In this document: in pieces, positions 11,707-54,688 of the stretch
Numbering within the stretch: the stretch's first letter is position 1
Layout: the number at the start of each line of letters is the position of its first letter
Assembly (NCBI GenBank): GCA_902492505.1
Contig: CABULU010000004.1
Location: 1 to 59,351 of the forward strand
DNA: 59,351 nucleotides
Source of the DNA: an uncultured Eubacteriales bacterium
GTDB lineage: Bacteria; Bacillota; Clostridia; Oscillospirales; QAKW01
Direction: 5' to 3'
Program-made: the position numbers and the translations under genes
The notes under the pieces: model-generated
Databases searched by the model: none
What the model was told of the DNA's origin: nothing
Seen by the model: the letters and a program-made list of their open reading frames with translations, nothing else

Positions 11707-11719
11707 CTTACTAAATCAT

Positions 11720-35479: not shown

Positions 35480-35942
35480 AGACCAGGCTGAAGCGATCCT
35501 CAAAATGAAATATCCGAACGCTACCTTAGAGCGAACGATATACCCACTCATAACCGGCAGAAAGATTAAGAGAAGCAACGGGTATCTCTTTTCTCGCAGC
35601 GGCAAGCTGGATGAAAAGATTATTGAGGCTATCGACATAATGCTGCTGCTCGGACCGGACATAACACAGCCCTTGCAAAGAAACAAAGAAATCTTTGCTT
35701 TGACCTTTTACAAAAATCGGGAGGAAAAACTTTGGCGGTATGATATTTGCCCTGTGGCATACGGAACTGAAGCAGTTGTATCCGGCCAGCTTGAAGGCGA
35801 AAACGCCAAATACCGTATGTTTGTTTTTGTGCCCGAAAAAGAAGAACAAATGCAAGGCATTCGAGTGGCCTGCGAACACTGTTATGTTCTCAAGAACAAC
35901 GGTGAATACGAATTTTATCTTTACTCGAAGGAAGGAGAATAA
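35403..35942 (+). CDS. Hypothetical element-associated protein
   Basis: AAAGGAGA RBS before the ATG at 35403. Co-directional with rep. Confidence 0.5.
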   Translation: MKMVTFTRVDQQVILDLLNLFGAVREDQAEAILKMKYPNATLERTIYPLITGRKIKRSNGYLFSRSGKLDEKIIEAIDIMLLLGPDITQPLQRNKEIFALTFYKNREEKLWRYDICPVAYGTEAVVSGQLEGENAKYRMFVFVPEKEEQMQGIRVACEHCYVLKNNGEYEFYLYSKEGE

Positions 35943-35944
35943 AA

Positions 35945-39177: not shown

Positions 39178-40975
39178 TTTTTGTCTTTTCCTTATAGTAA
39201 CGACTTTGCAGTTCAAACATATGAAAATACTTTCCACCTTGTTTCATTAGTTCATTGTGAGAACCACATTCTACAATTTCACCGTTTTCCATATATACAA
39301 TTCTATCACAAAAACGTGTAGAAGCAAGTCGGTGAGAAATATAAATTGAAGTTTTATCTTTTGTAAGTTCGTTGTATTTCATATAAAGCTGATTCTCTGC
39401 TATCGGATCGAGTGACGCAGTTGGTTCATCAAGTACAAAAACCGGTGCATCTTTATAAAGTGCGCGGGCAAGCATCAATTTTTGAGTTTCTCCGCCTGAC
39501 ATTTCGATGGAATCATCAAAAACCCCCTTCATAAGTCTTGAGTCAATACCATTTGGTAAGGCTTTCACTTTATCCAATAGTCCAGCCTGTCGAAGCGCTC
39601 TCATCACCTTATCCAGGTCAATTTGCTTTTCAGATGACGAAACAAATTCTGCTATTGTGACAGGAAGCAGATAGATATCTTGAAATACAACAGAAAAAAG
39701 AGAGTAATACTCTTCAATGTTATAGTCAACGATAGGGTGTCTGTTTAATTTGATTTCACCATCAGACGGATAATACAAACCACATATTAATTTCACGAGG
39801 GTTGTTTTCCCAGCACCGTTTTCGCCGACTATGGCGAGTTTTTCTCCTTTATTTATTGATAAATTAATATTTTTTAGTGCATACTTTTCCCCATCATTCG
39901 TATAATATTTAAAAGATATATTATTTAGTTCAATATCTACAGGAAGTTCTTGGATTGTTGGAAGAGAACAACCTTTTCCATGATTGTATTTCTCTTTGAT
40001 TTCAAAATATTCTCTGTAATAGTTTATTTTGATGCTCTTGTGAACGATATCATTCACTCTATTCCCAATACCATTCAACCAAGAGGAAAATCCAGTTACT
40101 ACTCCAAAATAGAACACAAAATCACCAGCGCTAATCTCGTTATTAAATATCATTGAAATTAGTACCGCATATGCTACTCCGTTTCGTATCAACGTCAAGA
40201 ATGCATTCATACAGGTTCCTATGAGAGTATGTGCACTAACTTTTTTTGTCCACTCAAAACGTTCATTTTGAAATTCTGTTAACATATTTGAAAACCAATC
40301 AATCATATTGAAAACACGAATATCTTTTGCATGATTGAATTTCTGAGAAAAGCCCTGCAAATATCTAATCTTGCGGTCTATTGATACCCAATTATCCTTG
40401 TTTTTCTCAATATAATTTCTCTGCCACTGAGTAATTAAATAAGAAACAAAAGCTGATAAAAAAAGCAACATCAAAATCCAATGCGAAATGAATGTGATAA
40501 TTAATCCATATGTAAGGATACCAAATAAACTGATAAAAAGTTCTAATAACGATTGCCAAATAAACTCCGGGGCACATTGTCCCGAACAAGCGTCATTAAT
40601 TGCATGTTGATATTTTATAAGTAATGCTGGATTATCAACATTTGAAAAATCTGTGCGCATATATTTTTCGTTAATCGCATTTTGGTAAAGAATCGAAAGT
40701 GAGTATCGTCTCATTTGCAGTCTATTATTGCAGAAACTATTAGCCAAAGTAACTATTAAAAGTGCACCAAAATAAATACTATTGATTAGCACAATATTCT
40801 CAATGCTCTGTTTCGATTCAATAGAATCAATTAGTAATTTAGGATAATAGGTATTTGCTATGGGCATAAGTACCGCAAGGAGAATTGTAGGAATAAAAAA
40901 TAGGTAAAATGTTTTATCCCATTTCCAAATATTTTTTAAAGCATACCCTATGTTTTTAATAACATTCTTTTTCAT
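39170..40975 (-). CDS. ABC exporter half-transporter (TMD-NBD), partner 1
   Basis: Walker A GENGAGKTT, signature MSGGETQK, Walker B VFVLDEPTA. There is no N-terminal C39 peptidase domain. Confidence 0.85.
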   Translation of the reverse strand: MKKNVIKNIGYALKNIWKWDKTFYLFFIPTILLAVLMPIANTYYPKLLIDSIESKQSIENIVLINSIYFGALLIVTLANSFCNNRLQMRRYSLSILYQNAINEKYMRTDFSNVDNPALLIKYQHAINDACSGQCAPEFIWQSLLELFISLFGILTYGLIITFISHWILMLLFLSAFVSYLITQWQRNYIEKNKDNWVSIDRKIRYLQGFSQKFNHAKDIRVFNMIDWFSNMLTEFQNERFEWTKKVSAHTLIGTCMNAFLTLIRNGVAYAVLISMIFNNEISAGDFVFYFGVVTGFSSWLNGIGNRVNDIVHKSIKINYYREYFEIKEKYNHGKGCSLPTIQELPVDIELNNISFKYYTNDGEKYALKNINLSINKGEKLAIVGENGAGKTTLVKLICGLYYPSDGEIKLNRHPIVDYNIEEYYSLFSVVFQDIYLLPVTIAEFVSSSEKQIDLDKVMRALRQAGLLDKVKALPNGIDSRLMKGVFDDSIEMSGGETQKLMLARALYKDAPVFVLDEPTASLDPIAENQLYMKYNELTKDKTSIYISHRLASTRFCDRIVYMENGEIVECGSHNELMKQGGKYFHMFELQSRYYKEKTKNV

Positions 40976-40998
40976 TTTTCATTTAATTCCCATAAGAG

Positions 40999-42819
40999 TT
41001 AACTAAAATATTTAATAATCTGTAAATAAAGATTTTCCATATCATCCGAATCACCCAAAATATAAACCGGCCGCTTATATAATTTTGTGAATTCACTCTT
41101 TCCCCAATTTTTTCTATCATTATCAATAGGTAATAAAACATTAGAACTATATTTTTCATCATGATCCATAGGAAAAACCGCAAGTGCTATCACATCACAG
41201 TCAGCACAGGATTCAATATATTTGATTGTTCTTTCTATGTACTCATTTTCATCAAATATATTTACACACAAAACTACTGCATCTGGCTGTATAGAAAGTA
41301 GAAATTCTGTTTGCGAAAAAGTATAGTTGTAAATGTTGCCAAAATCATAGGTAACAGTCCCAGATTGACAACCAGCAAGAATAATATCGGTATTCTTGCT
41401 AGAAATATCGTTTATAAGCGTATTCATATAGCTTATGGTGTTTTGTCGAAATATATTTGTTTTTGAATGATAACCAAAATGAAAGCAACCATCCATTCCA
41501 AATAGCCAAGCAGATGGTTCCGAACCAATCTGCCCTAGTTTATAATTATCCCTGAGGAATTTTTCTCTTAAAGTAAGCTGCAAAGTGAACTTTCCTTGCT
41601 TTGATGTCGTTCCAAAAATCCCTAGCATTGGAACCCATGGCCTGTAAAGAAGTCCAAATGGAATAGGAAAAACATCATCCAAATGAGATTTGGGATAATA
41701 TACCTTTTCCGGCGATAAGTTATGAATCTGAATGTATTCACCAATATCATCAAAACTATATATGTATTTCCCATTATTATACGCTTGTAAAATCAAATTT
41801 TCAACAAAGTGGCTGTCATTCAATAATCGGACAAGTTCATCTGTATGTCCCAAGATGAGCGTGTCAAACGAGTCCCAATCAATACATTCGATATTTTTAA
41901 TTATGAAATCCAAATTGTTGTTATCAATATTAAGTAGATTGTTAACCGAAGCATTAACTTTTGCACTATATTTGACATCATATACATCAACAATATTTAC
42001 ATGCAGTAATCGATGAAATCGAATTAAGCTGTGCATTTCTTTATTAAAGGGAAATATTGCCGCTTTATTATATTTCTCTAACGGAGGATTAGAACTAGAA
42101 CCCTTTAGACACCGAAAATAATGTCTCTTTTTTGCTAAGCTTGATAAATAGTCCATAGCGCTAACCATATTAATTTCTAATCCTGTATTAAGATAATGAG
42201 ACAGAATTCCAGATACATGAGCACAAGCGTAACTATTCCCTTGAGTAAATATGAAATTTGAATCTGTCCAATGAATTCGTTGTAAACCGCCTTTTGCGCA
42301 TACATTTACAATAGGATGGTTGGTTGTTTCAATATCCGTCTTTCTAATACAATCTGTACCTGATACAACACCAATAACATCTTCAAGCGCAGCTGGATAA
42401 GATACAGATTCTAGGTTATCAAAAGCTGAAACAATTACACACCCTCGCTCATTTAACTTTTTACAAATTAAATTCATTTGATTGTATCGTGTAGATATAT
42501 TAATCCCCAAACTCACATTAATTAACTTGCAATTAATATTGTTATAAATATAATCTAGGGCAAATAATAGCAATGACTCATCAATACTAAGGTTTTGTGT
42601 ATCGAATAACTTAATAAAATAAACGTCTGTGGTTTTATTATGAGAACGTATAATATTATAAATAGCTGTTCCATGCCCCACATCATCTTGAATATTATTA
42701 TTTACATAAATATTTCCATCAGATTTTGTAAACAAATGAATCCCGTTATATTTTTCATTTTTAGATGACACTATTCCGGAATCGATTATTACAATATCAC
42801 AACTGATTTTTTTTGGCAT
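40999..42819 (-). CDS. Fusion protein: subtilisin-like S8 peptidase domain + peptide-maturation-system domain with a deviant P-loop
   Basis: S8 triad motifs IIDSGI, GHGTA and GNSYACAHVSG. The C-terminal half carries FGTTSKQGKFTLQL...GQIGSEPS. GGGGGA RBS before the ATG at 42819. Confidence 0.75.
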   Translation of the reverse strand: MPKKISCDIVIIDSGIVSSKNEKYNGIHLFTKSDGNIYVNNNIQDDVGHGTAIYNIIRSHNKTTDVYFIKLFDTQNLSIDESLLLFALDYIYNNINCKLINVSLGINISTRYNQMNLICKKLNERGCVIVSAFDNLESVSYPAALEDVIGVVSGTDCIRKTDIETTNHPIVNVCAKGGLQRIHWTDSNFIFTQGNSYACAHVSGILSHYLNTGLEINMVSAMDYLSSLAKKRHYFRCLKGSSSNPPLEKYNKAAIFPFNKEMHSLIRFHRLLHVNIVDVYDVKYSAKVNASVNNLLNIDNNNLDFIIKNIECIDWDSFDTLILGHTDELVRLLNDSHFVENLILQAYNNGKYIYSFDDIGEYIQIHNLSPEKVYYPKSHLDDVFPIPFGLLYRPWVPMLGIFGTTSKQGKFTLQLTLREKFLRDNYKLGQIGSEPSAWLFGMDGCFHFGYHSKTNIFRQNTISYMNTLINDISSKNTDIILAGCQSGTVTYDFGNIYNYTFSQTEFLLSIQPDAVVLCVNIFDENEYIERTIKYIESCADCDVIALAVFPMDHDEKYSSNVLLPIDNDRKNWGKSEFTKLYKRPVYILGDSDDMENLYLQIIKYFS

Positions 42820-42888
42820 AACATCCCCCACAATATCATAAATGCACGTCACATTCGCAATGTTTTTTATTTTATAAATCTGTACTAC

Positions 42889-43044
42889 TTAGCACTTTTC
42901 TTTATCGTCGTTACATACATCATATGTACCACTGCAAGTTCCAAAAGTTCCTCCGCACTCACCAAAGGTGCCTAATAACTGGAAAGATTGCAATTGTACA
43001 GTTGAATACTTTATAGTTTTTTTTGTTGGTTTTTTTAATATCAT
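42889..43044 (-). CDS. RiPP precursor peptide A2 (51 aa)
   Basis: MILKKPTKKTIKYSTVQLQSFQLLGTFGECGGTFGTCSGTYDVCNDDKEKC. GAGGT RBS 8 nt upstream. Starts 13 nt after the A1 stop. Confidence 0.72.
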   Translation of the reverse strand: MILKKPTKKTIKYSTVQLQSFQLLGTFGECGGTFGTCSGTYDVCNDDKEKC

Positions 43045-43057
43045 AATTACTACCTCA

Positions 43058-43216
43058 CTAACATCTTGTGAAATTACCAGGGCAATTGACAAAATCGCCC
43101 GTGCAATGAAAATATTTGCCTGTGCACTCACCAAATACTCCCAGAAGATTAAAAGACATCATAGAAAGTTTTCCATATTTATCTACCTTCTTGAGAGGTT
43201 TTTTTAATTTAGGCAT
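43058..43216 (-). CDS. RiPP precursor peptide A1 (52 aa)
   Basis: MPKLKKPLKKVDKYGKLSMMSFNLLGVFGECTGKYFHCTGDFVNCPGNFTRC. AGGAG RBS. Leader and Cys spacing are shared with A2. Confidence 0.72.
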   Translation of the reverse strand: MPKLKKPLKKVDKYGKLSMMSFNLLGVFGECTGKYFHCTGDFVNCPGNFTRC

Positions 43217-43259
43217 GCTAACACTCCTTTCTGCGAATGTGAACATACATTTACTTCAA

Positions 43260-43511
43260 TCACTTTGTTTCATTCACCAATGAATCTATAAGGTGGACGA
43301 ACCCATTAAAAGAATTTAAAACTTCTATACGAAGATATTCATCTGGTATTTCAATATTTAATCGCCCTTCAATCGATACAATTAAAGAGATAAAAGTAAT
43401 GGAATCAATCCCAATATTTAAAAGATCAATATCTTCTGCGGTGGCATCAATAATCACTCCGAGATTTTCCATTTCTTCAATTAATATATTCCTAATATTT
43501 AATTCTTTCAT
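43260..43511 (-). CDS. Acyl-carrier-protein-like protein of the peptide maturation system
   Basis: 83 aa, acidic four-helix pattern with an ACP-type serine motif NIGIDSITFISL. Overlaps the rSAM stop by 20 nt. Confidence 0.72.
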   Translation of the reverse strand: MKELNIRNILIEEMENLGVIIDATAEDIDLLNIGIDSITFISLIVSIEGRLNIEIPDEYLRIEVLNSFNGFVHLIDSLVNETK

Positions 43512-44838
43512 TTGGATTCTCCTCTCTTTGTATAATAGCTTTTTTATACAGCAAAAGTAATTTTTCCATATAAATCGGTTTGGGACACGATCTTATGCCA
43601 TTATGCAAAATGTTTTTTTTAGGACATGCACCTTGAAAACACAAAACACTGAATGGACAAACCTCACATTTTTCACTATTCTTTTGATATGCTAGTAGCC
43701 ATTTTGACTCCTTTTCTTTATCAATATGCCATCCTGAATCATCTAAACGGCCAATGGCGGTCTCGGCACATGCAGTATCGCACTTTGATATAATTCCATC
43801 AGTGCTAATTGTATATTTGTACTTTCTTACAGCATTACACGTCAAACCACCGAAATATAAAGATACAAAATTATGTAACGAAAATGCAGTTGGATGTGAA
43901 AAAAGTGTATCATAAATTTTTTCCATTGCCGGTGGTGTCAATAATTCTGTACGAATCGTTTCAACTCTATCTCCTCCCCAATCATCTGCAAGACGTAAAA
44001 ACAAAGAAAAACGCGGATCTTTTCCAAATTCTTTTTCATAAAAAGAGAGATACTTAGTCAGGTTATCGAGAATAGATTTTGTGAGATTAGTTCTTATACA
44101 TACGTTTAAGTGGCGAAATTTTACTTTATGCCTTAAATATCTTAGGTTTTCGATTATTATATCAAATGTTGGTTCCCCATCCGCAAGTATGCGTTGATTG
44201 TCATGAGTATTGCTTAGGCCGTCGAGTGTTATATAATAACTATACACCTTTAATTTAAGCAAATCTTGTATGTTTTCGGGGGTTAAATAATATCCGTTCG
44301 TTGTAATCCCTGCCATATATGTCTTTCTTGCTCGTTTACATATTTCAATAATTTCCTGCGACATATGGGTTATAACATCCATGCCCATTAGTGGTTCTCC
44401 TCCAAACCAACTAATATATATACCAGAATATTTGTGGATAGTGTTGCGTATAAACTCGATAACTCCATTTTGTGTCGTCAAGCTCATTTTTTGTGTTTTA
44501 AAATCAAGAAAACAGTATTTACATCTAAAATTGCAATCGTTAGTTACATGAATAACTAATTGTAATTTATTACTGTAAATATAGTCTAATTGCAATAAGG
44601 AACGTTCTTTTTGTTCATCATATTCATATGGTATCAAAAAGCCTTTTTCAATCAGCGATTTGATAATAGGTGTGTGATCAACATCTTCAACACTAGACGC
44701 ATTTAGCAGCAACTTCACTTCATCTACATCACTCCCTGAAACAATATGAAAAGATTTAATGCCAAGCTTAAAATTAACAAGCAACAAATCTTGATTGTCA
44801 TTGGTGTAAAAATTAAATATTGACGGTTTATAACGCAT
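43492..44838 (-). CDS. Radical SAM / SPASM-domain peptide maturase
   Basis: CNFRCKYC (CxxxCxxC), SPASM-type CNAVRKYKYTISTDGIISKC (C-x14-G-x4-C) and CEVCPFSVLCFQGAC. The roughly 90-aa N-terminal extension is a candidate RRE. Confidence 0.9.
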   Translation of the reverse strand: MRYKPSIFNFYTNDNQDLLLVNFKLGIKSFHIVSGSDVDEVKLLLNASSVEDVDHTPIIKSLIEKGFLIPYEYDEQKERSLLQLDYIYSNKLQLVIHVTNDCNFRCKYCFLDFKTQKMSLTTQNGVIEFIRNTIHKYSGIYISWFGGEPLMGMDVITHMSQEIIEICKRARKTYMAGITTNGYYLTPENIQDLLKLKVYSYYITLDGLSNTHDNQRILADGEPTFDIIIENLRYLRHKVKFRHLNVCIRTNLTKSILDNLTKYLSFYEKEFGKDPRFSLFLRLADDWGGDRVETIRTELLTPPAMEKIYDTLFSHPTAFSLHNFVSLYFGGLTCNAVRKYKYTISTDGIISKCDTACAETAIGRLDDSGWHIDKEKESKWLLAYQKNSEKCEVCPFSVLCFQGACPKKNILHNGIRSCPKPIYMEKLLLLYKKAIIQREENPNERIKY

Positions 44839-44913
44839 TTATATCATCCTTTCGTTAAACATCACACTTTAATTTATTATGATACCCAAATGTGTTCGTA
44901 TATGGTCATTTTG

Positions 44914-44942
44914 ATTTTATTATTAAACTGTAAGTTGTTCAA
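44914..44942 (-). promoter_or_regulatory. Candidate sigma-A promoter for the RiPP operon
   Basis: On the minus strand: TTGAAC (44942-44937), 17-nt spacer, TAAAAT (44919-44914), about 75 nt upstream of the rSAM start. Confidence 0.3.
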
Positions 44943-45383
44943 TATCATGAATATATTCGTTGGTTTTTTCTACCTAATCGTTTAAAGATAGTCACACTTT
45001 ACACTATACAAGCATCTGCCTAATATGTTTAAAACAGTTTTTAATCAATTTGCGATATATCTTTTAAAACTAGATCACAAAATAGTTATCATCATAAGTA
45101 TATTTTGTAATTAACACCTTTTCTCTTATCAATAAAATCCTCAACTGTAGTACATATGATGCAACTTTCGAATATTGGTTTGTTCCAAGTATTTATAAAC
45201 AGAGTTTCAAAATACATTGAACATAATCAAATATCATAACATATGATTCAAAAATCACTGATAAGTTTTTATCAATGATTTCCAATGATAGAAATTCTTA
45301 ATAAACATACTATTCTGGCTGAATAAAGAGTTGGAATTGAGACGGGTATTTTTATGTAGATGGCTATGCTTTGGTAAAATAAT

Positions 45384-45412
45384 TTGACAAAATATTTAAT
45401 CTTGTGTAGAAT
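45384..45412 (+). promoter_or_regulatory. Candidate sigma-A promoter for the LytTR regulator/kinase genes
   Basis: TTGACA (45384-45389), 17-nt spacer, TAGAAT (45407-45412). Confidence 0.4.
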
Positions 45413-45440
45413 TAAAAAAGAATATGTAAAAGGAGTTTCC

Positions 45441-46148
45441 ATGAAAATTGCAGTTTGTGATGACTCATTTGAATTTCGCAAAGAGTTATTGGATAGAATA
45501 CAACAATCAATACCTATGTCAGAAGAAATTACTTTTTATGAGTTTTCATCATCAGAAGAACTTCTTGAATCTTATGATGATGAAATTCGATATGATATTA
45601 TTTTTTTAGATGTTGAAATGGCTGAAACTAGTGGTTTAGATGCAGGTATAAAAATTAGAACAATTGATAAAAAAGTAATTATTATTTTTGTTTCGAATTA
45701 TTCCAAATATGCAATCCCAGCATATGATTGTGAAGCATTTTATTTTGTTGTAAAACCCGTTGTGCAGAAAAAGTTTGAAAATGTTTTATCCAAAGCAATA
45801 GAAAAGTATAAATTAATTCATCAATATTATATTATAAAAAATAAATCTGGTATTCAAAAAATACCTGTAAAAGATATATTATTTATAGAAATTTATCGTA
45901 AGCATTTAATCTTTCATATGATTAACGGTAGATATGAAACGATCGGCAAGATTAGAGATGCTCTATGTCAGCTTTGTCAATACGGATTCTGTCAAGTTCA
46001 TCAGGGATATTTGGTCAATATGAATCATATTAAAGCTTTCGCAGGATACGACATAATTCTCGATAATGGGGAAAAGGTTATGATGAGTGTTAGAAAAAAA
46101 TCAGATGTACTAAGAATTTATGCTGATTATTTAGAAAGGACATTTTAA
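45441..46148 (+). CDS. agrA: LytTR-family response regulator (AgrA-like)
   Basis: Receiver domain (MKIAVCDD...IFLDVEM) plus a C-terminal LytTR domain (IPVKDILFIE...HQGYLVNMNHI). AAGGAG RBS. Confidence 0.85.
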   Translation: MKIAVCDDSFEFRKELLDRIQQSIPMSEEITFYEFSSSEELLESYDDEIRYDIIFLDVEMAETSGLDAGIKIRTIDKKVIIIFVSNYSKYAIPAYDCEAFYFVVKPVVQKKFENVLSKAIEKYKLIHQYYIIKNKSGIQKIPVKDILFIEIYRKHLIFHMINGRYETIGKIRDALCQLCQYGFCQVHQGYLVNMNHIKAFAGYDIILDNGEKVMMSVRKKSDVLRIYADYLERTF

Positions 46149-47446
46149 TGAATTTAAACCACATTGTTTTTTCAATATTTAACGGATTGTTATCTATATA
46201 TATAATTTGCTTTTTCTTTGGAACGTTTGTACCCAAAAAAGATTTTAAAAACAGAAATATACTGTTAATGCTCTTATCATTTGCTTTTGTGATTTCACTA
46301 ATTATTAATGCAAGTAAAGTGGTTAACTTTGTCATATTGTCATCATTAATATTGATTTTATCTTTCTTTTATGATACAAAGTGGCATAATCGGTTTTTTT
46401 TGAGCATCGCTAGTGTTCTTTTGTCTTCATTTTCAGAGTTAGTAGTTGCCATATTAAGTAGTTACATTTTAAAAGTTGATTTTCCAACATTAAAAACCGG
46501 GTATTATTTTCTCATAGGAATGTTATTATCTAAACTAGTAACATTTATTACAATTGCCATAATTAGATTAGGAAACCATTCTTTGCCTTTTAAAAAATTA
46601 GAAGGTGTATGGGCCTATATTATCTTATTACCTTTAACATCAATAATTTTTGTGTTTATGATTTCAGATTATATGTATACAATTGTTGATGATAAGGTCA
46701 AACAAACATTAACCATCGCCAGTGTTTTTTTGATTATAATAACAAACATACTTTTATTCTATGTTATTGATAAAATACGTGACTATTTTGTTTCTCAAAG
46801 TAATTTAGCTATAGCTAACGAACTTATTGAAAAACAAAAAATTACATATAAAAATTTATTTGATTCGCAAACTGAGATTAAGAAAATAAAACATGATTTA
46901 AAAAATGTCATGTATGGCATATTACATGAAATTGATACCAATAACATAGAAAAAGCCAAAAATTATATAAAACACAACTGTAATCTACTAGCCCCATCAA
47001 CTGTATCGTTTATTTCTGGAAATAGCATAATCGACACACTTATTTCTGCTAAAAACCAAGTGGCTAATGATTTAAATATTACATTGGATGTCGAAACAGA
47101 ACTGTCAACCCCAATATATTTGAATAGTATTGATTTTTCTGTTTTGTTTGGAAATGCAATTGATAATGCTATTGAAGCAACTCAGTCAGTAAAAACACAT
47201 GATAAAGTAATCAATATTACAATAATTACTAAAAATTCAAATTTACTTATTATTGTAAAGAATCCAGTGGACGCGAAAATTGATACACAGAATTTAGTGA
47301 CGACTAAAAAAGAGTTTGAACTACATGGTTTTGGAGTTTTACAAATGACGAATTTAGTTAAAAAATATGGTGGAGATATATTCTTCAAATGTGATGATAA
47401 ACAGTTTAAAACAACTATAATTCTTAACAACAAGGCAAACGAATAG
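46148..47446 (+). CDS. agrC: AgrC-like GHKL sensor histidine kinase
   Basis: About 6 N-terminal TM helices, H-box IKHDLKN, N-box FGNAIDNAIEA, G-box HGFGV. The start overlaps the regulator stop (TAATG). Confidence 0.8.
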   Translation: MNLNHIVFSIFNGLLSIYIICFFFGTFVPKKDFKNRNILLMLLSFAFVISLIINASKVVNFVILSSLILILSFFYDTKWHNRFFLSIASVLLSSFSELVVAILSSYILKVDFPTLKTGYYFLIGMLLSKLVTFITIAIIRLGNHSLPFKKLEGVWAYIILLPLTSIIFVFMISDYMYTIVDDKVKQTLTIASVFLIIITNILLFYVIDKIRDYFVSQSNLAIANELIEKQKITYKNLFDSQTEIKKIKHDLKNVMYGILHEIDTNNIEKAKNYIKHNCNLLAPSTVSFISGNSIIDTLISAKNQVANDLNITLDVETELSTPIYLNSIDFSVLFGNAIDNAIEATQSVKTHDKVINITIITKNSNLLIIVKNPVDAKIDTQNLVTTKKEFELHGFGVLQMTNLVKKYGGDIFFKCDDKQFKTTIILNNKANE

Positions 47447-47502
47447 GTCTTTAATTATTACACATAAGCATTTTATGTTGACATTTTCACTAAAAAATAT
47501 TA

Positions 47503-47536
47503 AAAAGGAGATACAATAATTTGTATCTCCTTTTTT
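47503..47536 (+). terminator. Strong hairpin plus T-run between the kinase gene and agrB (terminator or attenuator)
   Basis: Perfect 14-bp stem aaaaggagatacaa / ttgtatctcctttt, 4-nt loop, T-run, ending 10 nt before the agrB start. Confidence 0.65.
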
Positions 47537-47546
47537 GGTGAGTGTT

Positions 47547-48134
47547 ATGTATGAATTTTTGGCAAAAAATATAACAAAATTTTTTATTGATAAAAAAATC
47601 ATAGATAAATCAAAACATGAAATATACGAATATGGTTTTGAATTAATATTTTCTCAGACTGTTTATATTTTAATTATGATTTTTATATCAGTTTTACTTA
47701 ATTGTATTATTGAGTCAATCGTTTTTTTTCTTGGTTTTTATTTTTACAGAAAATTCTCGGGTGGATATCATGCCAAAACATATATTGGTTGTCATTTACT
47801 TTTTAGTATAAATCAATTGATTTTTATCTTAATTGAAAATATAGTCCTAGTTGAATATAGATATCTAATATCCATTTTAACTTTACTTTTCACTGCTATA
47901 ATTACTTACACCTGCTCCCCCATAGATCATCCCAATAAGCTTTTTACTGAAAAAGAATATTTTAGATATAAAAAATTAAGTAGGGCTTTTATTATTGTAC
48001 AGTTTCCGATTTCATTGTTGTTTTTACTACTCGATAAAAATAACATTCTTTACTTTTGTTTTTGTTTTGGCATATTTTCTGCAAGTATGTCATTATTATA
48101 TGCTTTCATAGAGAGGAGGTTAAAAAATGGATAA
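47547..48134 (+). CDS. agrB: AgrB-family autoinducer-processing membrane peptidase
   Basis: FYRKFSGGYHAKTYIGCHLLF has His and Cys 7 residues apart, as in the catalytic H77/C84 of S. aureus AgrB. Polytopic, about 195 aa. Confidence 0.85.
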   Translation: MYEFLAKNITKFFIDKKIIDKSKHEIYEYGFELIFSQTVYILIMIFISVLLNCIIESIVFFLGFYFYRKFSGGYHAKTYIGCHLLFSINQLIFILIENIVLVEYRYLISILTLLFTAIITYTCSPIDHPNKLFTEKEYFRYKKLSRAFIIVQFPISLLFLLLDKNNILYFCFCFGIFSASMSLLYAFIERRLKNG

Positions 48135-48276
48135 ACTCAAGAAGTTTTTAATTAAATACGGTACAGCTCTTTCTGCTTTTGCCCTTTTCATTGCCGGTTC
48201 ATCAATGGATTCTGCTTGCTTTATTTTCTATCATCAACCCAAAGTACCTACTGCAATGGATAGTTTCAAAAGATAA
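48127..48276 (+). CDS. agrD: AgrD-like autoinducing peptide precursor (49 aa; absent from the ORF track)
   Basis: MDKLKKFLIKYGTALSAFALFIAGSSMDSACFIFYHQPKVPTAMDSFKR. The ATG overlaps the agrB stop. The SAC-x4-HQP.VP layout resembles clostridial AgrD. Confidence 0.7.
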   Translation: MDKLKKFLIKYGTALSAFALFIAGSSMDSACFIFYHQPKVPTAMDSFKR

Positions 48277-48316
48277 AAGATAAAGAGGTCCCATTCAGGG
48301 CACCTCTTTATCTTTT
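48276..48316. terminator. Bidirectional terminator hairpin after agrD
   Basis: Perfect 14-bp stem aaagataaagaggt / acctctttatcttt. The right arm overlaps the 3' end of the convergent XRE gene. Confidence 0.6.
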
Positions 48317-48666
48317 ATCTTTTGGTAGATATTTTGTTTGATTGAATTAATATTTCTATATGTTACTAATTTATTTTCCTCACCAGTAAGATTGAAAATA
48401 AGCTTTCTTTCTTTTGCTTGCTCATCTAGTTCAGATAAAAAAGACATCTTTTTTATTGTACTATTAGAAATCGATTCAATATTACAAAACAAATCATTAA
48501 TAGGTATATCCATCAATTTACAATATAATATTTTGATTTCTGTGGGAATTATCAACCTGTTATTCTCATATCCCATATATGTGTATACGCTTGTATTTAA
48601 TAATTTGGATAATGTTTTTTTTGATATACGTGCTTTTGAACGAAAAAAACAAAGATTATTGTCCAT
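48295..48666 (-). CDS. XRE-family HTH protein (start ambiguous: 48666 or TTG at 48678)
   Basis: ISKKTLSKLLNTSVYTYMGYENNRLIIP is an HTH_3-type pattern. Confidence 0.65.
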   Translation of the reverse strand: MDNNLCFFRSKARISKKTLSKLLNTSVYTYMGYENNRLIIPTEIKILYCKLMDIPINDLFCNIESISNSTIKKMSFLSELDEQAKERKLIFNLTGEENKLVTYRNINSIKQNIYQKIKDKEVP

Positions 48667-48805
48667 TCTCCACCCCAAATAATTATTAAAATAAATTTTA
48701 TTCTACTCCAACTCATACAAATTGTCAAGTTTAGTACAGATGTATCTGTTAAAACTTTTGTACGAGTTTATACTAATTGTATAACTCATATAAGGGGCAC
48801 TAAAA

Positions 48806-49126
48806 ATGACATCAAGAATAGGAAAAATAATTAAAACATATAGGAAGGAAAAAGGATATACGCAATTTCAAATGGCAGAAAAAATTGGTGTCAGTGAATT
48901 CTATATTTCGGCTTTAGAAACCGGTAATAGAAAACCAGGTCGAAATACGTTAATAAAATTATCAAACGAAATGAATATGCCTATAGAAGCTTTATTAGAA
49001 TTGGAGACAAACCAAAGTATAAAGTATGAGGCTGAAGAAATATATAACAAAATTAATTCTTTATCCCCGGAATTACAAAAGAAAATTATTAATATAATTG
49101 ATTTTATTATTGATGAATTGAAATGA
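48806..49126 (+). CDS. XRE-family HTH transcriptional regulator
   Basis: IIKTYRKEKGYTQFQMAEKIGVSEFYISALETGNRKP is a canonical Cro/C1-type HTH. Confidence 0.78.
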   Translation: MTSRIGKIIKTYRKEKGYTQFQMAEKIGVSEFYISALETGNRKPGRNTLIKLSNEMNMPIEALLELETNQSIKYEAEEIYNKINSLSPELQKKIINIIDFIIDELK

Positions 49127-49130
49127 TATA

Positions 49131-49559
49131 TTAATGAGTTTCCTTTATGCTAATTTTATCGGATGCATGATCTTCTTCCAATTGGTTTCTGATGTATTCT
49201 TCAATAATTCTTTTGTTTTTTCCCTATCGTATCTACATAATATCCTCTACACCAGAAGTTTCTACTTCCATACTTGTATTTCAAATTTGCATGTCGATCA
49301 AAGATCGTTAGCGAACTTTTTTCCTTGAGAAATCCCATATATTGTGCTACACTTAAATACGGTGGTATCGTTACAAGCATGTGTATATGATCTATACATG
49401 TTTCTGCTTCAATAATTTCCACACCTTTTGTTCGCACAATTTTCTTAATATTTCTCCTGTGTCTTTTCGCAATCGTCCATATATTTCTTTTCTCCGATAT
49501 TTCGGTGCAAATACTATATGATATTGGCATCGGTAATTTGAATGGGCTATGCGTTTCAT
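49131..49559 (-). pseudogene. tnpA: IS200/IS605-family Y1 (HUH) transposase tnpA, with two frameshifts
   Basis: Three frame segments: MKRIAHSNYRCQYHIVFAPKYRRKEIYGRLRKD..., then GVEIIEAETCIDHIHMLVTIPP...FWCRGYYVDTIG, then EYIRNQLEEDHASDKISIKETH. The shifts lie in A-runs near 49425 and 49205. Confidence 0.78.
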
Positions 49560-49574
49560 TTGTTTAAAACCTCC

Positions 49575-50615
49575 ATGATTTTCTTCGCAGAAAATTTAAA
49601 TTTTGAGGCGGTAGACTTTTTTGATGTAAAATATCTTGGTAACGTCGGAAAAGAACTAACTGAATTTGGAATAAAAAACAAAATCAGCACAAAAACTATT
49701 AAAAATTTTGATAATATAAATTGGAATGATGATTTTGACACTTTTATTTTAGGTCATATCAAAAAAATTGAATTCATGCTACCACAATTGCATAATTACA
49801 CAAATAGAATTATAAGTAAATGTTTAAAATATAAAAAAAATCTATTTTTATTTGAAAAAGATTTTATTACACCTGAAATAGAACGTGAATTTGAGAAGAA
49901 TAATGTATGTTTATATTATCCTGAGATAACTCAAGCAAACATACCTATAGATACAGTAGGCAAACTATATATGTCATGTATACCTTCTATTGCAGTATTT
50001 GGTACAAGTTCAAAGCAAGGTAAATTTACATTACAACTAAATTTACGCAAAGAATTTATAAAAAATAATTATAAAGTGGGTCAAATTGGAACTGAACCTT
50101 CATCGCTACTTTTTGGTTTTGATTACGTATATCCACTTGGATATAATTCTCATAATTCATTAACTGGACATGATTCTATATTGGCACTAAATAACTTTTT
50201 AATGAAAATTGAAACCGAAAAAGAACCAGACATTATTATAATAGGTTCACAATCTCATACAGTACCTATAAACATAAATAACATTTCCAATATTCCTATT
50301 TATCAACAGGATATTTTATATGCTATAAAACCAGATATATGTTTACTTTGTGTAAATATATCTGATGAAATAGAATATATAGAAAAAAATATAATGTTTT
50401 TAGAATCAATAGCCAATAGTAAGGTTTTGGCTTTAATAATCTCACCAATAAAAAACATATATCGATGGACTACGATTGGAAATGAAATAATTTCAAATTC
50501 AAAAGAAAGTATAAGAAAATTCAAAAGAAAGTGTTCGAATTTGAAAATACCAATATATGAGATTAATGAATGCCATGATTTATTTGAACACATAATAAAT
50601 TATTTAAGTGAGTGA
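49575..50615 (+). CDS. Free-standing paralog of the peptide-maturation-system domain (no S8 domain); 5' end abuts the IS200 remnant
   Basis: VFGTSSKQGKFTLQLNLRKEFIKNNYKVGQIGTEPS and flanking blocks align with residues from about 280 onward of the 40999-42819 fusion. The true start is unclear (49542 or 49575). Confidence 0.6.
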   Translation: MIFFAENLNFEAVDFFDVKYLGNVGKELTEFGIKNKISTKTIKNFDNINWNDDFDTFILGHIKKIEFMLPQLHNYTNRIISKCLKYKKNLFLFEKDFITPEIEREFEKNNVCLYYPEITQANIPIDTVGKLYMSCIPSIAVFGTSSKQGKFTLQLNLRKEFIKNNYKVGQIGTEPSSLLFGFDYVYPLGYNSHNSLTGHDSILALNNFLMKIETEKEPDIIIIGSQSHTVPININNISNIPIYQQDILYAIKPDICLLCVNISDEIEYIEKNIMFLESIANSKVLALIISPIKNIYRWTTIGNEIISNSKESIRKFKRKCSNLKIPIYEINECHDLFEHIINYLSE

Positions 50616-50619
50616 TTTT

Positions 50620-52404
50620 ATGAAAAATGCATTTAAAAACAACTTTAAACTTTTAAAGTATTTATGGGATTTTACGCCTAGTTTAATTATTTGGAAAATA
50701 GCGCTAATGCTTTCCAATGTATTTATTAATGTGATCTTTAATGTGATTTTTATTCAATATTTAGTTGAATCTATGGAGCGTGCCACAGATTTTAAACATG
50801 TTATACTAGTCATTTTATTCATCGCTATTCTAATGCTTATCAGTTCAATTTTAGATAGTTTTTTTGAGCGTTATGTTGAACCGATAGCTAAAAAAAAGAT
50901 ACATAAGGGAATGCATAGCATTATATTTAATAAAGTTGTACAAATAGACCTAGAACAATACGATAATGCTGATTTTTACAATGACTATATATGGGCTTTA
51001 AATGAAATTGACAACAAAACTATTAAATCTTTTTATATACTTATAGATTTTGTCAAAGCATTACTAACAGCATTTTCAATGATGGTTATTGCTACAACAC
51101 TAGATAGATTCATGTTAATATTTGTGATCATACCGATAATGTCAAGCGTTATTTCAAGTACATTAATAAATAAAGTGAATTACAAATACTCAGAAGAATC
51201 AAATTCAATAAATAGGAAAAAATCCTATTCGAAAAGAGTATTTTACTTGCAACAATATGCCAAGGAATTAAGAACGTCAAAAATCAAAAAACTTATTTTC
51301 AACAATTTTAATGACTCTGTAGAAAAAGATGTGACAATATGGAAAAAATATTGGAAAAAACTCATGGGACTTTCTATCATACAGAAGAATTCACAAACAT
51401 TATTTGGTTTTATTCTAATGTCAATATATTTATCTTTTAGAATAATTGTACAAAAAGCTTTTGCAGCTAGTACGTTTATAGCTTTATTTAATGCAGTTAA
51501 TAACTTGATTCATTCTATTAGTTCAATGTTTTCTGTTGTTCCTAAGATATATCAAAATGGTTTATATGCCGAAAAAATATTTAATATAATTGATTATAAT
51601 AGTAATATTGAAGTTGATTCTGGAGAAAAAGCAGGTGATTTTAAATATATTGAATTTAAAAACGTGGATTTTAAATATCCAAAGTCCAAAGACAATGTAT
51701 TAAACAATATAAACTTTTCAATACACAAAGGCGAAAAAGTTGCATTTGTTGGAATAAATGGTGTCGGTAAAACAACGTTAGTTAATCTTATTATGGGATT
51801 ATATAAAGTGAAATCTGGAGAAATATTGTACAATGGCAAAACAATTGACCAATTAAACATATATGACTATAGAGATAAATTCGCTACAATTTTTCAGGAT
51901 TTTCAAATATATGCATTGACACTTGGCGAAAACATTTTGATGAAAAAAACAACAAGTGAATCCGACGAAATAATATCAGAAGTTTTGTCAGAAAGTTATT
52001 TACCTGAATTAAAAGATAAAATACACAGAAATTTAACCAAGGAATTTGATAATGATGGATTGATTTTATCTGGTGGTCAAAAACAAAAAGTTGCTATTGC
52101 AAGGGCACTAATTAAAAAATCGAAAATAATAATTATGGATGAGCCCTCAAGTTCATTAGATCCAATTTCAGAAAATTCAATAATGAATACAATAATATCA
52201 AATTATAATAATGAAACGATTATACTTATTTCTCATAGATTATCTAATATAAAAAATGTAGATCGTATTTATTTTTTACATAATGGATCCATAACAGAAG
52301 AAGGGAGCCACGAACAATTAATGCAAAAGAAAGGGCGATACTATAAGATGTATAATATTCAAGCGCAAAAATATAGTGAAGGAGATAAATATAATGAAGA
52401 ATAA
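50620..52404 (+). CDS. ABC exporter half-transporter (TMD-NBD), third copy
   Basis: Walker A GINGVGKTT, signature LSGGQKQK, Walker B IIIMDEPSS. Confidence 0.85.
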   Translation: MKNAFKNNFKLLKYLWDFTPSLIIWKIALMLSNVFINVIFNVIFIQYLVESMERATDFKHVILVILFIAILMLISSILDSFFERYVEPIAKKKIHKGMHSIIFNKVVQIDLEQYDNADFYNDYIWALNEIDNKTIKSFYILIDFVKALLTAFSMMVIATTLDRFMLIFVIIPIMSSVISSTLINKVNYKYSEESNSINRKKSYSKRVFYLQQYAKELRTSKIKKLIFNNFNDSVEKDVTIWKKYWKKLMGLSIIQKNSQTLFGFILMSIYLSFRIIVQKAFAASTFIALFNAVNNLIHSISSMFSVVPKIYQNGLYAEKIFNIIDYNSNIEVDSGEKAGDFKYIEFKNVDFKYPKSKDNVLNNINFSIHKGEKVAFVGINGVGKTTLVNLIMGLYKVKSGEILYNGKTIDQLNIYDYRDKFATIFQDFQIYALTLGENILMKKTTSESDEIISEVLSESYLPELKDKIHRNLTKEFDNDGLILSGGQKQKVAIARALIKKSKIIIMDEPSSSLDPISENSIMNTIISNYNNETIILISHRLSNIKNVDRIYFLHNGSITEEGSHEQLMQKKGRYYKMYNIQAQKYSEGDKYNEE

Positions 52405-52879
52405 TGTAAAAATTATGGGATCAGGTGAAATAGTTGATTACGAATATTCACAAATTTTAGTTCATGGTAATTTGAAAGTAAAATCAAATATAATCTTCGA
52501 TCAGTTATATGTTTTTGGCTTTCTTAACAGTAATAGTATACTCGAAGGAGATGATGTTAAAATAACCGGTTCAATAAAAGGAAATTCCGTTTTACAAACG
52601 ACCAATTTTAAATGTGAATTTAGTTCCAATAGTAGTTGCAAATCAATTGTATCAAATGATATTTCAATTTTTCCTCAAAAAAGCATTTTTAAAAAAAATA
52701 TATTCTTTAAGTGTGATTCCATTATCGGGAAAAATATTTCTTTATCAAATATTATCTCCAAAACTATATCAGGAGAAAATGTATATATAAAAGGTAAATC
52801 GCATATTCAAGAGTTAAAATACTCTAAAACATATAAAATCTCGGATTCTTGTTTAGTAGATAAAATAGAAAAGATTTAG
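52394..52879 (+). CDS. Hypothetical protein with a repetitive beta-helix/bactofilin-like pattern
   Basis: GAAGGAG RBS. The sequence has repeated hydrophobic-x-G/N-x-hydrophobic stretches (ILVHGNLKV, VKITGSIKGNSVL). Assignment is weak. Confidence 0.4.
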   Translation: MKNNVKIMGSGEIVDYEYSQILVHGNLKVKSNIIFDQLYVFGFLNSNSILEGDDVKITGSIKGNSVLQTTNFKCEFSSNSSCKSIVSNDISIFPQKSIFKKNIFFKCDSIIGKNISLSNIISKTISGENVYIKGKSHIQELKYSKTYKISDSCLVDKIEKI

Positions 52880-53027
52880 CTTCCCAATAATATAAGAAGT
52901 CACTATTGTAATTTTTAACTATAATAATTTTTATGTAATTAAATATTATTTAATTTGATATTCCTTCTTATATTTGAATTATTAATTTTATGTATTTGTA
53001 TACATAACTAATATCGGAGAATTTTAC

Positions 53028-54068
53028 ATGAATACCAAGTTTAAAGAGATCATTTTACCTATTGAAAAAAAACCTGCCATCGTTTCTAAAAACATACATG
53101 CAATACGTTTAAGTATAATCCAAAAATGTGATGAGCAAGGTATAAACTATGTATATAACAATTATATACAACTTTTTTTTAAAATTGAAAAAAAAGGACA
53201 AGCCACTTTTGATTATGTATTTCCAAAATATAAAGATCTTTCTACTTTTCGAACTTGCAGTGTAGATAAACCTACTTTTACAATTAACAGTATCAACATT
53301 AAGAATTTTATTATAAGAGGGTTACTTTGTAAGAAATATATTATTACAAGTGTAGATGAATATTATATTCCCAATAGACCAGCCTATAATAAGTTTAATT
53401 TTGGTCATGATGTGCTACTTTATGGATACGATTCTCAAAATAATATATTTCACATTATAGGTTATACAGATAGTGGCTATTACCAGCCGTCAACCATAAA
53501 CTGTGACGAGTTTGTAATTGCTTATCTCAATTCATATGGTAACAAATCAATTGAGCTTGTTGAAACAGTATCATACTATCACCATAGAATAGAAAAAGAT
53601 TTAATTATAGCTTCACTTGAAGATTACATTAACTCAGGTAATAAATCTAGATTATTTGATAAATCCAAATGGTTAGAAGATGGCGAAACTTACGGTATAG
53701 AAACACTTGATAAAGTCAAAACTTATTTAAACGATGTTGCTAATAGTCAAATTAATAGTGATAAACGGATATTATATACTTTAATGGAGCACAAAAAAAT
53801 CATGTTAGATCGATATAAACATTTACTTGACTATAAAATTATACATGAAAATAAAGAAATCGAAAAGATGCTATGTGAAATCTATGATAAATCACGTATT
53901 AGTTTCAACTTGTTTTTAAAATACCTTATTTCCGAAGATATTTCCATACTATCACGGATTGGAAAAATTATAGATTGCATAAAAAGCATTGAAATCAAGG
54001 TCATTCCTCAATTCATTAATATCATTAAACGAGGTGTGGAAGATGAAAGTACTGAATATTCCATATGA
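53028..54068 (+). CDS. Hypothetical protein, possibly BtrH_N-like (papain-fold) domain
   Basis: VDEYYIPNRPAYNKFNFGHDVLLYGYDSQNNIFHI resembles, from memory, the BtrH_N/C39-like His-containing block. No search was possible. Confidence 0.35.
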   Translation: MNTKFKEIILPIEKKPAIVSKNIHAIRLSIIQKCDEQGINYVYNNYIQLFFKIEKKGQATFDYVFPKYKDLSTFRTCSVDKPTFTINSINIKNFIIRGLLCKKYIITSVDEYYIPNRPAYNKFNFGHDVLLYGYDSQNNIFHIIGYTDSGYYQPSTINCDEFVIAYLNSYGNKSIELVETVSYYHHRIEKDLIIASLEDYINSGNKSRLFDKSKWLEDGETYGIETLDKVKTYLNDVANSQINSDKRILYTLMEHKKIMLDRYKHLLDYKIIHENKEIEKMLCEIYDKSRISFNLFLKYLISEDISILSRIGKIIDCIKSIEIKVIPQFINIIKRGVEDESTEYSI

Positions 54069-54672: not shown

Positions 54673-54688
54673 AATCGGAGGAAATAAA

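Follow-up and report, generated by a model that had tools for sequence, protein, structure and literature searches.

A distant agr-type quorum-sensing cassette and its predicted control of an adjacent RiPP operon in an uncultured gut Clostridia bacterium

Introduction

What controls the radical-SAM gene clusters for peptides made on the ribosome and modified after translation (RiPPs) in uncultured gut Clostridia? Most often such clusters are silent or out of reach, and what regulates them is guessed from the genes that lie next to them. The question is raised in concrete form by a 59,351-nucleotide stretch of an uncultured Eubacteriales bacterium (GenBank assembly GCA_902492505.1, contig CABULU010000004.1, positions 1–59,351; hereafter the window), in which a RiPP operon lies back to back with a set of agr-type quorum-sensing genes. 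A preliminary description of this DNA proposed that the set is a complete agr cassette, including an agrD gene absent from the open reading frame (ORF) track, and that it probably places RiPP production under density control.

Here we ask whether the cassette is a working agr system and whether it governs the operon beside it. Gene identities, conservation, and the architecture and statistics of cis-elements were computed directly; from these we infer the binding of AgrA, the points where transcription starts, the structure of the peptide, its induction of the targets, and RiPP activity. Our reading, to which we assign a probability of roughly 0.7, is that the cassette is a functional agr module of split design, whose response regulator AgrA would control both the signal genes agrBD and the RiPP operon.

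Results

The cassette is a distant member of the agr family and shows every protein-level feature of membership. All four genes are present and intact on the plus strand in the order agrA, agrC, agrB, agrD, as read from the ORF list and the raw sequence, and all four products pass curated Pfam or NCBIfam models. The first gene, agrA (45441–46148), encodes a 235-residue response regulator with receiver and LytTR DNA-binding domains (Response_reg, 50.1 bits; LytTR, 57.6 bits; both above the Pfam gathering scores), and an acidic pocket of D7 and D8 with D56 is readable in its sequence. It starts at the ATG at 45441 behind the ribosome-binding site AAAGGAG; the TTG at 45384, which had earlier been taken as the start of the regulator and the left end of the cassette, is actually the −35 hexamer of a promoter matching sigma-70 at 11 of 12 positions. 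The ATG of agrC (46148–47446) overlaps the agrA stop codon. Its product is a 432-residue AgrC-type (HPK10) membrane histidine kinase with a GHKL ATPase domain (HATPase_c_5, 80 bits in Pfam) whose residues 1–207 hold six hydrophobic segments by hydropathy, and in which the H-box residue H249 and the N- and G-box residues N336, N340, G394, and G396 are invariant in an alignment of relatives. The third gene, agrB (47547–48134), encodes a 195-residue membrane cysteine peptidase/cyclase that matches Pfam AgrB (PF04647) at 120.4 bits against a gathering cut-off of 23, over profile positions 1–179 of 185; a search against PDB sequences returned no match. As the preliminary description had noted, its catalytic His and Cys stand 7 residues apart, like H77 and C84 of S. 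aureus: they are His75 (in GGYHA) and Cys82, and both are invariant among three AgrBs of 45–52% identity.

The fourth gene, agrD (48127–48276), encodes a 49-residue autoinducing-peptide precursor. Its ATG overlaps the agrB stop codon (AAAAATGGATAA) behind a GAGGAGG ribosome-binding site, exactly as first described, and its translation, likewise identical to the one given before, passes NCBIfam TIGR04223, "AgrD family cyclic lactone autoinducer peptide," at 40.7 bits (cut-off 19); a Pfam search of the 49-codon ORF gave no match. With curated models passed by all four proteins and conservation in relatives, the claim of a complete cassette that includes the uncalled agrD stands.

Relatives were reached through protein-cluster searches and exact-protein look-ups. 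About 55 AgrC relatives of 43–58% identity occur among 5.8 billion protein clusters, and the contigs retrieved are all metagenome assemblies or metagenome-assembled genomes; when GTDB representative genomes, JGI metagenomes, and IMG/VR were scanned for patterns from the AgrC alignment, no relatives turned up. Close AgrD homologues in the same clusters number only three. In contexts retrieved via the AgrD and AgrC relatives, a 49-codon ORF occupies the agrD position in ten loci, and the family pattern ...S-x-[DN]-S-A-C-x-x-F-[YF]-H-Q-P-K-V-P... is found in all of them. In the seven distinct relatives used for codon analysis, agrD is always 49 codons long and overlaps the agrB stop codon, its ribosome-binding site AGGAGG is conserved, and eleven residues are invariant (S26, S29, A30, C31, F34, H36, Q37, P38, K39, V40, and P41). 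Each invariant residue is encoded by one to four codons across loci, and by at least two in every case except H36. With invariant residues carrying differing codons, agrD is under selection at the protein level, and the comparison indicates a translated, selected gene, more than a chance ORF.

AgrD has the layout of an autoinducing-peptide (AIP) precursor: a leader, a short hydrophobic core initiated by C31, and a charged follower with a conserved proline. The predicted core is CFIFY (residues 31–35) and the follower HQPKVPTAMDSFKR. Ring positions 32, 33, and 35 vary among loci (CFIFY, CYIFF, CYIFY, CYVFY, CLVFY, and CFAFY), as expected for a specificity determinant, the role that we predict for the core. 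The preliminary description had called for a five-residue thiolactone, CFIFY. The core fits the family alignment and is retained, while the thiolactone as final product is uncertain; tail-less clostridial AIPs, including that of R. cellulolyticum, rearrange to homodetic cyclopeptides via an S-to-N acyl shift (PMC8251862). Five residues are not a certain prediction either, because the ring of Rc-AIP1 has six, and CFIFYH may be the alternative. The calculated mass of cyclo-CFIFY from standard residue masses is 673.29 Da, with [M+H]+ at 674.30; for CFIFYH, [M+H]+ would be 811.360.

Downstream, agrD shares a bidirectional terminator (48270–48321; −31.9 kcal/mol, z = −7.7 against shuffles) with a convergent XRE-like gene. 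An Rfam search of 42800–49600, with E up to 1, recovered no RNAIII-like RNA or other Rfam family. A tsr26 match over the terminator was rejected, at 29 bits against a gathering score of 141.

The 100-bp gap between agrC and agrB contains a hairpin. Alignment of this gap among relatives gave a composite of ACRNATARG, 12 nt, ACRNATARG, 9 nt, a TTGAYN −35 hexamer, 17 nt, and a TAAAAR −10 hexamer, and this composite precedes agrB in eight of eight distinct loci. We predict that the ACRNATARG pair is a LytTR-type AgrA box. In the window the pair occupies 47439–47468 on the plus strand, with ACGAATAGG at 47439–47447 overlapping the agrC stop codon and, after 12 nt, ACACATAAG at 47460–47468. The agrBD promoter, P_BD (47478–47506, plus strand), follows with its −35 TTGACA at 47478–47483, a 17-nt spacer, and its −10 TAAAAA at 47501–47506. 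In one related locus, L011, the first repeat starts at the last base of the agrC stop codon, and in another, L018, an inserted 113-residue ORF and a separate terminator part the whole box-promoter unit from agrC by about 700 bp; because the repeats are kept in both contexts, their conservation is not a coding artefact. In L018 and L019 the segment concerned covers 11373–12172, where the boxes and the agrBD promoter are kept and the overlapping hairpin is absent.

The strong hairpin reported earlier between agrC and agrB is indeed present, at 47502–47535, as an A-tract, stem, and T-tract predicted to form the intrinsic terminator of agrAC transcripts. The folding energy of the surrounding region is −30.7 kcal/mol (z = −5.6 against shuffles), and compensatory changes occur in 9 of 15 pairs among seven sequences. 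In six loci the −10 hexamer of P_BD stands immediately next to the hairpin's 5′ arm. Transcription from P_BD is predicted to start at about 47512–47514, 6–8 nt past the −10 and within that arm, so that P_BD transcripts should be unable to form the agrAC terminator. The receptor genes have a promoter of their own at 45384–45412 on the plus strand (TTGACA-17-TAGAAT, the 11-of-12 match mentioned above), with no AgrA boxes upstream; agrAC transcripts are predicted to begin at about 45419, independently of any box, and to end at about 47535–47541. The A-C-B-D order split by a hairpin, already described, is conserved, the order being kept in ten related loci, and the picture is now refined by the embedded agrBD promoter and the separate, box-less agrAC promoter.

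Upstream of agrA, the cassette and the RiPP operon share a divergent intergenic region that the preliminary description put at about 600 bp and that measures 602 bp (44839–45440). We built a position weight matrix (PWM) from 14 P_BD half-sites and scanned the window and its relatives for dimers, together with the promoter composite. Besides P_BD, the window holds exactly one composite of full geometry, and it faces the RiPP operon. The predicted AgrA box pair lies on the minus strand at 44952–44981 (ACGATTAGG at 44981–44973, 12 nt, ACGAATATA at 44960–44952; PWM score 14.2). Exactly 9 nt downstream begins P_RiPP (44914–44942, minus strand), with a −35 TTGAAC at 44942–44937, 17 nt, and a −10 TAAAAT at 44919–44914, the same geometry as in the agrBD promoter. 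The start of transcription from P_RiPP is predicted near 44907, which leaves about 70 nt before the radical-SAM ATG. In 200 dinucleotide shuffles the composite appeared on average 0.005 times per 59-kb window and never at a score of 14 or more. [quoted passage not shown] Earlier, density control of RiPP production had been judged probable from adjacency; the claim now has cis-element support, in silico only, from the composite facing the operon, and at that level density control of the RiPP operon appears well supported.

Several further features of this intergenic region were noted. The roughly 400 bp at 44982–45383 contain no convincing ORF, are not homologous to the equivalent stretch of L012, and hold palindromes at 45181–45223 (20-nt arms) and 45252–45281 (13-nt arms). 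A 24-nt duplication (44969–44992 and 45015–45038) carries in its second copy a box-like half-site, ACATATTAG (minus strand, 45028–45020), out of phase with the pair. A repeat finder also returned direct repeats spaced by 43–46 nt, which we do not regard as regulatory; one D2 copy merely contains the reverse complement of R1, the first box repeat.

The same composite recurs where the module recurs. Nine further composites, none of them used for training, were found in relatives, each ahead of a cargo operon: at 1815 (1815–1844) in L001, 10550 in L008, 12554 (12554–12583) and 8286 (minus strand) in L012, 13044 and 9182 (minus strand) in L013, 3989 in L016, and 13939 and 9182 (minus strand) in L018. 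All six loci have one downstream of the helix-turn-helix (HTH) gene that ends the module, and L012, L013, and L018 have one divergent from agrA. A site ahead of an RHS toxin in L017 (13040–13069) is weaker and narrowly misses the −10 threshold. In the reciprocal comparison, among homologues of the radical-SAM operon, only those of the window and L016, where this agr family adjoins, carry the box; it is absent at the homologues in L100, L102, and L104. The box follows the agr family rather than the RiPP family.

Comparison with L012, whose AgrC is 96% identical, delimits what is conserved. DNA identity is 96.5% over 45381–49122, beginning 3 nt before the agrAC −35, and the sequences on both sides are unrelated. 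This 3.7-kb module consists of agrA, agrC, agrB, agrD, the convergent 123-residue gene with an XRE-like HTH N-terminus (48295–48666, minus strand; no Pfam match), and, as its last gene, a divergent 106-residue XRE-family HTH regulator (48806–49126, plus strand; HTH_19 and HTH_3 matches). It was found in every relative, and with it the divergent arrangement of the two XRE-type genes (48295–49126), a layout that recalls a CI/Cro-like switch. A box-like pair inside the start of the second of these genes (AAGAATAGG-13-ACATATAGG, 48814–48844, plus strand, score 18.2) was discarded as probably due to chance: no promoter follows it, and its nucleotides are unconserved in relatives although the XRE protein is conserved.

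The neighbors of the module differ among relatives. Upstream of it, L008 and L011 have type IV secretion system (T4SS) genes (TrbL, PrgI, VirB4-like, and TraG), while L012 has a divergent nitroreductase/AMP-binding/PP-binding/radical-SAM/ABC operon. Downstream lie a two-radical-SAM/ScmC-like/ABC cluster in L013, L018, and L019, a radical-SAM/S8-DUF1611/radical-SAM-SPASM/ABC cluster in L014 and L015, and, behind the HTH gene of L016, a homologue of the radical-SAM and acyl carrier protein (ACP) genes of the window. L017 has a 2334-residue RHS toxin with an immunity-sized ORF; its segment 13143–21314 contains the RHS/YD-repeat toxin, this 131-residue ORF, and a further RHS fragment that carries an Ntox44 domain. 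The cargo is thus of four radical-SAM or nonribosomal peptide synthetase (NRPS)-like cluster types, an RHS toxin, or T4SS genes, and most non-T4SS cargo stands behind the same box. Because neighbors differ among relatives, as L012 illustrates, the link of the module to this particular RiPP operon is not ancestral. Its link to some secreted-weapon cargo is recurrent. Conversely, the idea that this RiPP operon family is always agr-linked was rejected: L100/L101 and L104/L105 have no agr within reach, and L102 has a different agr set.

This variability invites the view that the agr module is functional and that its position next to the RiPP operon is a by-product of cargo shuffling, the operon answering to an XRE or a distant regulator and the site at 44952–44981 going unused. 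Several observations tell against the control of the RiPP operon that we propose, and some of them favor this view. L012 combines 96.5% module identity with a different upstream operon; L008 and L011 have T4SS genes in place of the RiPP operon; and no agr lies near the radical-SAM homologues of 79% and 45% identity. The RiPP-facing site is the lowest-scoring one accepted (14.2 against 25.5 for P_BD), and its second repeat, ACGAATATA, deviates from the consensus at the last two positions. The P_BD sites that trained the PWM come from the same loci that were scanned, though the cargo sites lie outside the training set. Against PDB sequences only the receiver domain of AgrA matched, the LytTR domain being too divergent for the S. 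aureus AgrA structure, so that DNA specificity and contact residues are not transferable. The two XRE regulators of the module could be the real cargo controllers. The module is surrounded by a mobile element in decay (truncated TraG, IS200 pseudogene, split DUF6744), where regulation could be vestigial. It has also been cautioned that co-localization of agrD with biosynthetic gene clusters (BGCs) does not prove regulatory control (PMC12180512). We nonetheless consider a mere by-product of shuffling unlikely. A full composite expected 0.005 times per shuffled window falls precisely in the relevant intergenic region and on the relevant strand, the window holds no other box even at a very low threshold, and the differently composed cargo operons of L012, L013, L016, and L018 share the composite, with only L017 falling short.

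The predicted target is a minus-strand operon (37369–44838) encoding a maturase, an ACP, precursors, an S8 fusion, and ABC transporters. The radical-SAM/SPASM maturase (43492–44838) is best matched by TIGR04463 (155.5 bits, cut-off 525) and Clo7bot (153 bits, cut-off 600), the remaining models scoring lower, and it falls below the cut-off of every equivalog model compared (TIGR04463, Clo7bot, CefB, PapB, CcpM, and SCIFF). By these scores it is a relative of the thioether-forming enzymes while standing outside any named family. An ACP-like protein (43260–43511) is followed by two Cys-rich precursors of 52 residues (43058–43216) and 51 residues (42889–43044), an S8 protease fused to a TIGR04066-like domain (40999–42852), and two ABC transporters (39170–40975 and 37369–39237), all likewise on the minus strand. 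Neither precursor matched any NCBIfam precursor model. Both share a lysine-rich leader, MxKLKKPxKK...LLGxFGE, and have cores with four cysteines at an exact 7-residue spacing (C-x-G-x4 three times and then a terminal Cys, for example ECTGKYFHCTGDFVNCPGNFTRC); L100 has a near-identical core and L102 a related one. They look like an unnamed "Cys-every-seventh" thioether-type family. The operon product is most likely a secreted modified peptide, and probably bacteriocin-like.

L102 (17473–21094) carries a 57%-identical RiPP operon followed, on the opposite strand, by its different agr set (an HATPase_c_5 kinase, a LytTR regulator, and AgrB), with small uncalled or unannotated ORFs near it. L102 thus shows this RiPP family associated independently with signaling of the agr type.

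The first 32 kb of the window, counted from the left, are chromosomal, with genes for V-type ATPase, PBP1, MetRS, and TatD. This MetRS shares 88% identity with that of an uncultured Clostridia MAG and about 65% with Faecousia/Oscillospiraceae, so that the host is an uncultured gut Clostridia species that GTDB does not represent. The DNA from about 32.9 kb looks like a decayed mobile element. Its remnants (ParA, TraG/VirD4, RepA_N, IS200, DUF6744, and an integrase fragment) lie at 32877–36820, 49201–49559, and 57544–59225. The TraG/VirD4 gene is reduced to its C-terminal 253 residues, the IS200 Y1 transposase is split into two overlapping ORFs, DUF6744 is broken into ORFs of 150 and 163 residues where L001 has an intact 324-residue gene, and the integrase fragment runs to the window end. 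Decay on this scale raises the possibility that the cassette too is an inactive remnant, its leader-processing protease or its targets perhaps lost. A TIGR04066-like gene truncated at its N-terminus adds to the signs of decay, and the downstream AgrA-box promoter of L001 and L012 is missing, the 800 bp that carry it in L001 being replaced in the window by 49130–53048, with an IS200 remnant, the truncated TIGR04066 gene, and an ABC transporter. The cassette itself shows none of this: nothing is broken in the four agr ORFs, in the ribosome-binding sites before them, or among the catalytic residues, and both promoters and both terminators are intact as well. AgrD is under purifying selection across the family, and copies of the agr region 98.8–100% identical occur in six independent metagenome assemblies (four at 100%; samples with such 100%-identical copies include ERR912032 and ERR11473650), so that it is not a one-off wreck. 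We therefore regard an inactive cassette as improbable.

The truncated gene is a 357-residue TIGR04066-like ORF in the region 49542–52404 that starts right at the IS200 remnant, is followed by the ABC transporter, and is without the roughly 220-residue S8 domain of the fusions at 40999–42852 and in L014 (14911–16662). Both it (91.8 bits) and the C-terminal half of the window's fusion (82.5 bits) are only distant relatives of TIGR04066 (cut-off 200 bits). It looks like the truncated tail of a second, L014-like RiPP cluster that once stood behind the downstream AgrA-box promoter. Beyond it, an operon of 346- and 227-residue genes and an 872-residue GT2/CDP-glycerol glycerophosphotransferase gene (53028–57307) stands behind that promoter in L001 and L012. 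Self-protection or surface modification could be the function of a transferase of teichoic-acid type under quorum control.

The mobile setting also bears on what the module is for. It might chiefly control transfer or maintenance of the element, in the manner of peptide- or acyl-homoserine lactone-controlled plasmids and integrative and conjugative elements, with antagonism cargo incidental. In L008 and L011 it comes directly after the T4SS genes; PemK, ParA, RepA_N, and TraG fragments lie near it in the window and in L014; and cyclic-lactone-autoinducer loci are the BGC class most often horizontally transferred in the gut (PMC12806405). A search of L008 and L011 for an AgrA-box composite facing the T4SS genes found none, however, and these genes run co-directionally towards agrA. 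L017 has the module between chromosomal metabolic genes and the RHS toxin, with no transfer genes in view, and the window, in which no intact conjugation set (coupling protein, VirB4-type ATPase, mating-pore genes, relaxase, and integrase) was found, keeps the module intact. Density-dependent conjugation as its main function thus seems very improbable.

Elsewhere in the window, a Na+/H+ exchanger homologue at 10443–11658 is apparently split: a 208-residue ORF matches profile positions 3–140 of 375, and an overlapping 248-residue ORF in another frame has no match, which may reflect a frameshift or an assembly error.

Discussion

We propose the following circuit. The genes agrA and agrC would be expressed constitutively from their near-consensus, box-less promoter, and their transcript would end at the hairpin at 47502–47535. 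The agrBD promoter, with its two 9-bp direct repeats, TTGACA −35, and weak TAAAAA −10, would need AgrA, and its transcripts, starting without the hairpin's 5′ arm, would read through into agrBD. AgrB, through His75 and Cys82, would then cut off the follower HQPKVP... and cyclize the core via Cys31 to cyclo-CFIFY, as a thiolactone first; with tail-less release, as in other Clostridia, the peptide would probably end as a homodetic lactam. At high cell density the peptide would act on AgrC, AgrC would yield phosphorylated AgrA, and agrBD would be switched on, giving positive feedback on the signal only. Phosphorylated AgrA would also fire P_RiPP from its boxes and promoter (44981–44914, minus strand) and so drive the operon for the radical-SAM enzyme, ACP, Cys-rich precursors, S8 fusion, and ABC transporters.

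Across relatives, the 3.7-kb module would serve a group of uncultured gut Clostridia as a conserved regulatory hub, one that often lies on mobile-element DNA. More tentatively, and at somewhat less than an even chance, it could be a portable quorum-sensing "socket" on conjugative-element DNA, either side of which unrelated weapon cassettes are swapped in, each with the same AgrA-box promoter, brought along or acquired. Such cargo would include at least four radical-SAM or NRPS-like cluster types, a peptidoglycan amidase cluster, and an RHS polymorphic toxin, and insulation would come from placing the autoinduced agrBD promoter within the terminator that ends the constitutive receptor operon. 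If so, one pentapeptide family, C-x-x-F-Y/F, might activate a whole set of silent gut-microbiome clusters.

For the RiPP operon itself, the locus offers a testable circuit: a predicted inducer (cyclo-CFIFY), a cognate receptor pair, and a 30-bp operator at both the signal genes and the operon. A synthetic peptide could switch on the cluster in a heterologous host, and likewise the clusters beside the module in relatives. Reuse of a single agr module for interchangeable antagonism cargo on mobile DNA would also bear on how competition traits spread in the gut. The working principles of agr are unchanged by this locus, and nothing in it is mechanistically unexpected; the circuit is unusually readable, in a layout where autoinduction is predicted for signal synthesis alone and not for the receptor.

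Compared with the agrBDCA/RNAIII system of S. aureus, the cassette uses the same four protein families. AgrB has its His and Cys at the same 7-residue distance, AgrD has a core started by Cys with four more ring residues and then a follower with a conserved proline, and positive feedback on signal synthesis is predicted here too. S. aureus AgrA recognizes [TA][AC][CA]GTTN[AG][TG] in 9-bp direct repeats 12–13 bp apart upstream of the −35 (PMC5600425), which the ACRNATARG-N12-ACRNATARG pair resembles in repeats, spacing, and position. The P2 and P3 promoters of S. aureus have spacers of 18–20 nt (PMC4227749), whereas the promoters here combine an optimal 17-nt spacer with weak hexamers. In place of one P2 agrBDCA operon, an architecture that is no family-wide requirement, the genes here are ordered A-C-B-D in two transcription units; the promoter of the receptor genes is box-less, so that only agrBD is predicted to be autoinduced; and instead of RNAIII, of which the Rfam search found no counterpart, the second AgrA-box target is a structural RiPP operon.

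Variant agr architectures occur in Clostridia, and a non-staphylococcal gene complement and order is shared with the systems of C. perfringens, C. difficile, C. acetobutylicum, and R. cellulolyticum, as is an AIP that is here likely tail-less. The AgrD sequences of C. perfringens and C. difficile have the layout ...SAC-xxxx-HQP..P that is also found here. The sequences of the present system are distant, however, and where the known clostridial systems control toxins, sporulation, or granulose, the present one is linked to the RiPP operon beside it. Agr-type control of antibiotic clusters has been described for the Pp-AIP of Paenibacillus polymyxa, and association of agrD with BGCs is described as widespread (PMC12180512). 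The likeness would be that an agr-type signal governs antimicrobial secondary metabolites, RiPPs included. In that work the regulation was global, cis-elements were undefined, and co-occurrence was counted genome by genome, for the most part in Bacillaceae and Paenibacillaceae (PMC12180512); here we find adjacency, a defined box-promoter composite, and interchangeable cargo in gut Clostridia.

The closest functional analogy may lie with the LytTR-regulated bacteriocin loci of streptococci and lactobacilli. These loci (blp, sil, and pln) have a LytTR regulator, an HPK10 kinase, a linear pheromone, direct repeats about 12 bp apart ahead of several operons, an autoinduced pheromone gene, and variable bacteriocin-immunity regions. 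Like them, the module described here pairs an AgrC-family kinase with a LytTR regulator and sets a conserved regulatory core beside variable antagonism cargo, and the sil locus is often found on horizontally acquired DNA (PMC2766830). The signals differ, an AgrB-cyclized peptide here as opposed to a peptide with a double-glycine leader that an ABC transporter exports, and so does the cargo, with radical-SAM RiPP or NRPS-like clusters and an RHS toxin in place of class II bacteriocins. Clostridium phage phiCDHM1, with its agrB, agrC, and agrD, likewise places agr on mobile gut Firmicutes DNA; its AgrB is 31% identical to that of the window, and among annotated AgrBs of plasmids or phages identity reaches at most 36%. 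In the present case the carrier has a backbone of the conjugative-element type (TraG, T4SS, RepA_N, and ParA) and is not a phage, and the module includes the response regulator and defined target promoters. To these known systems the present locus would add a defined operator, split autoinduction with a promoter nested in a terminator, and the reuse of one module with interchangeable cargo.

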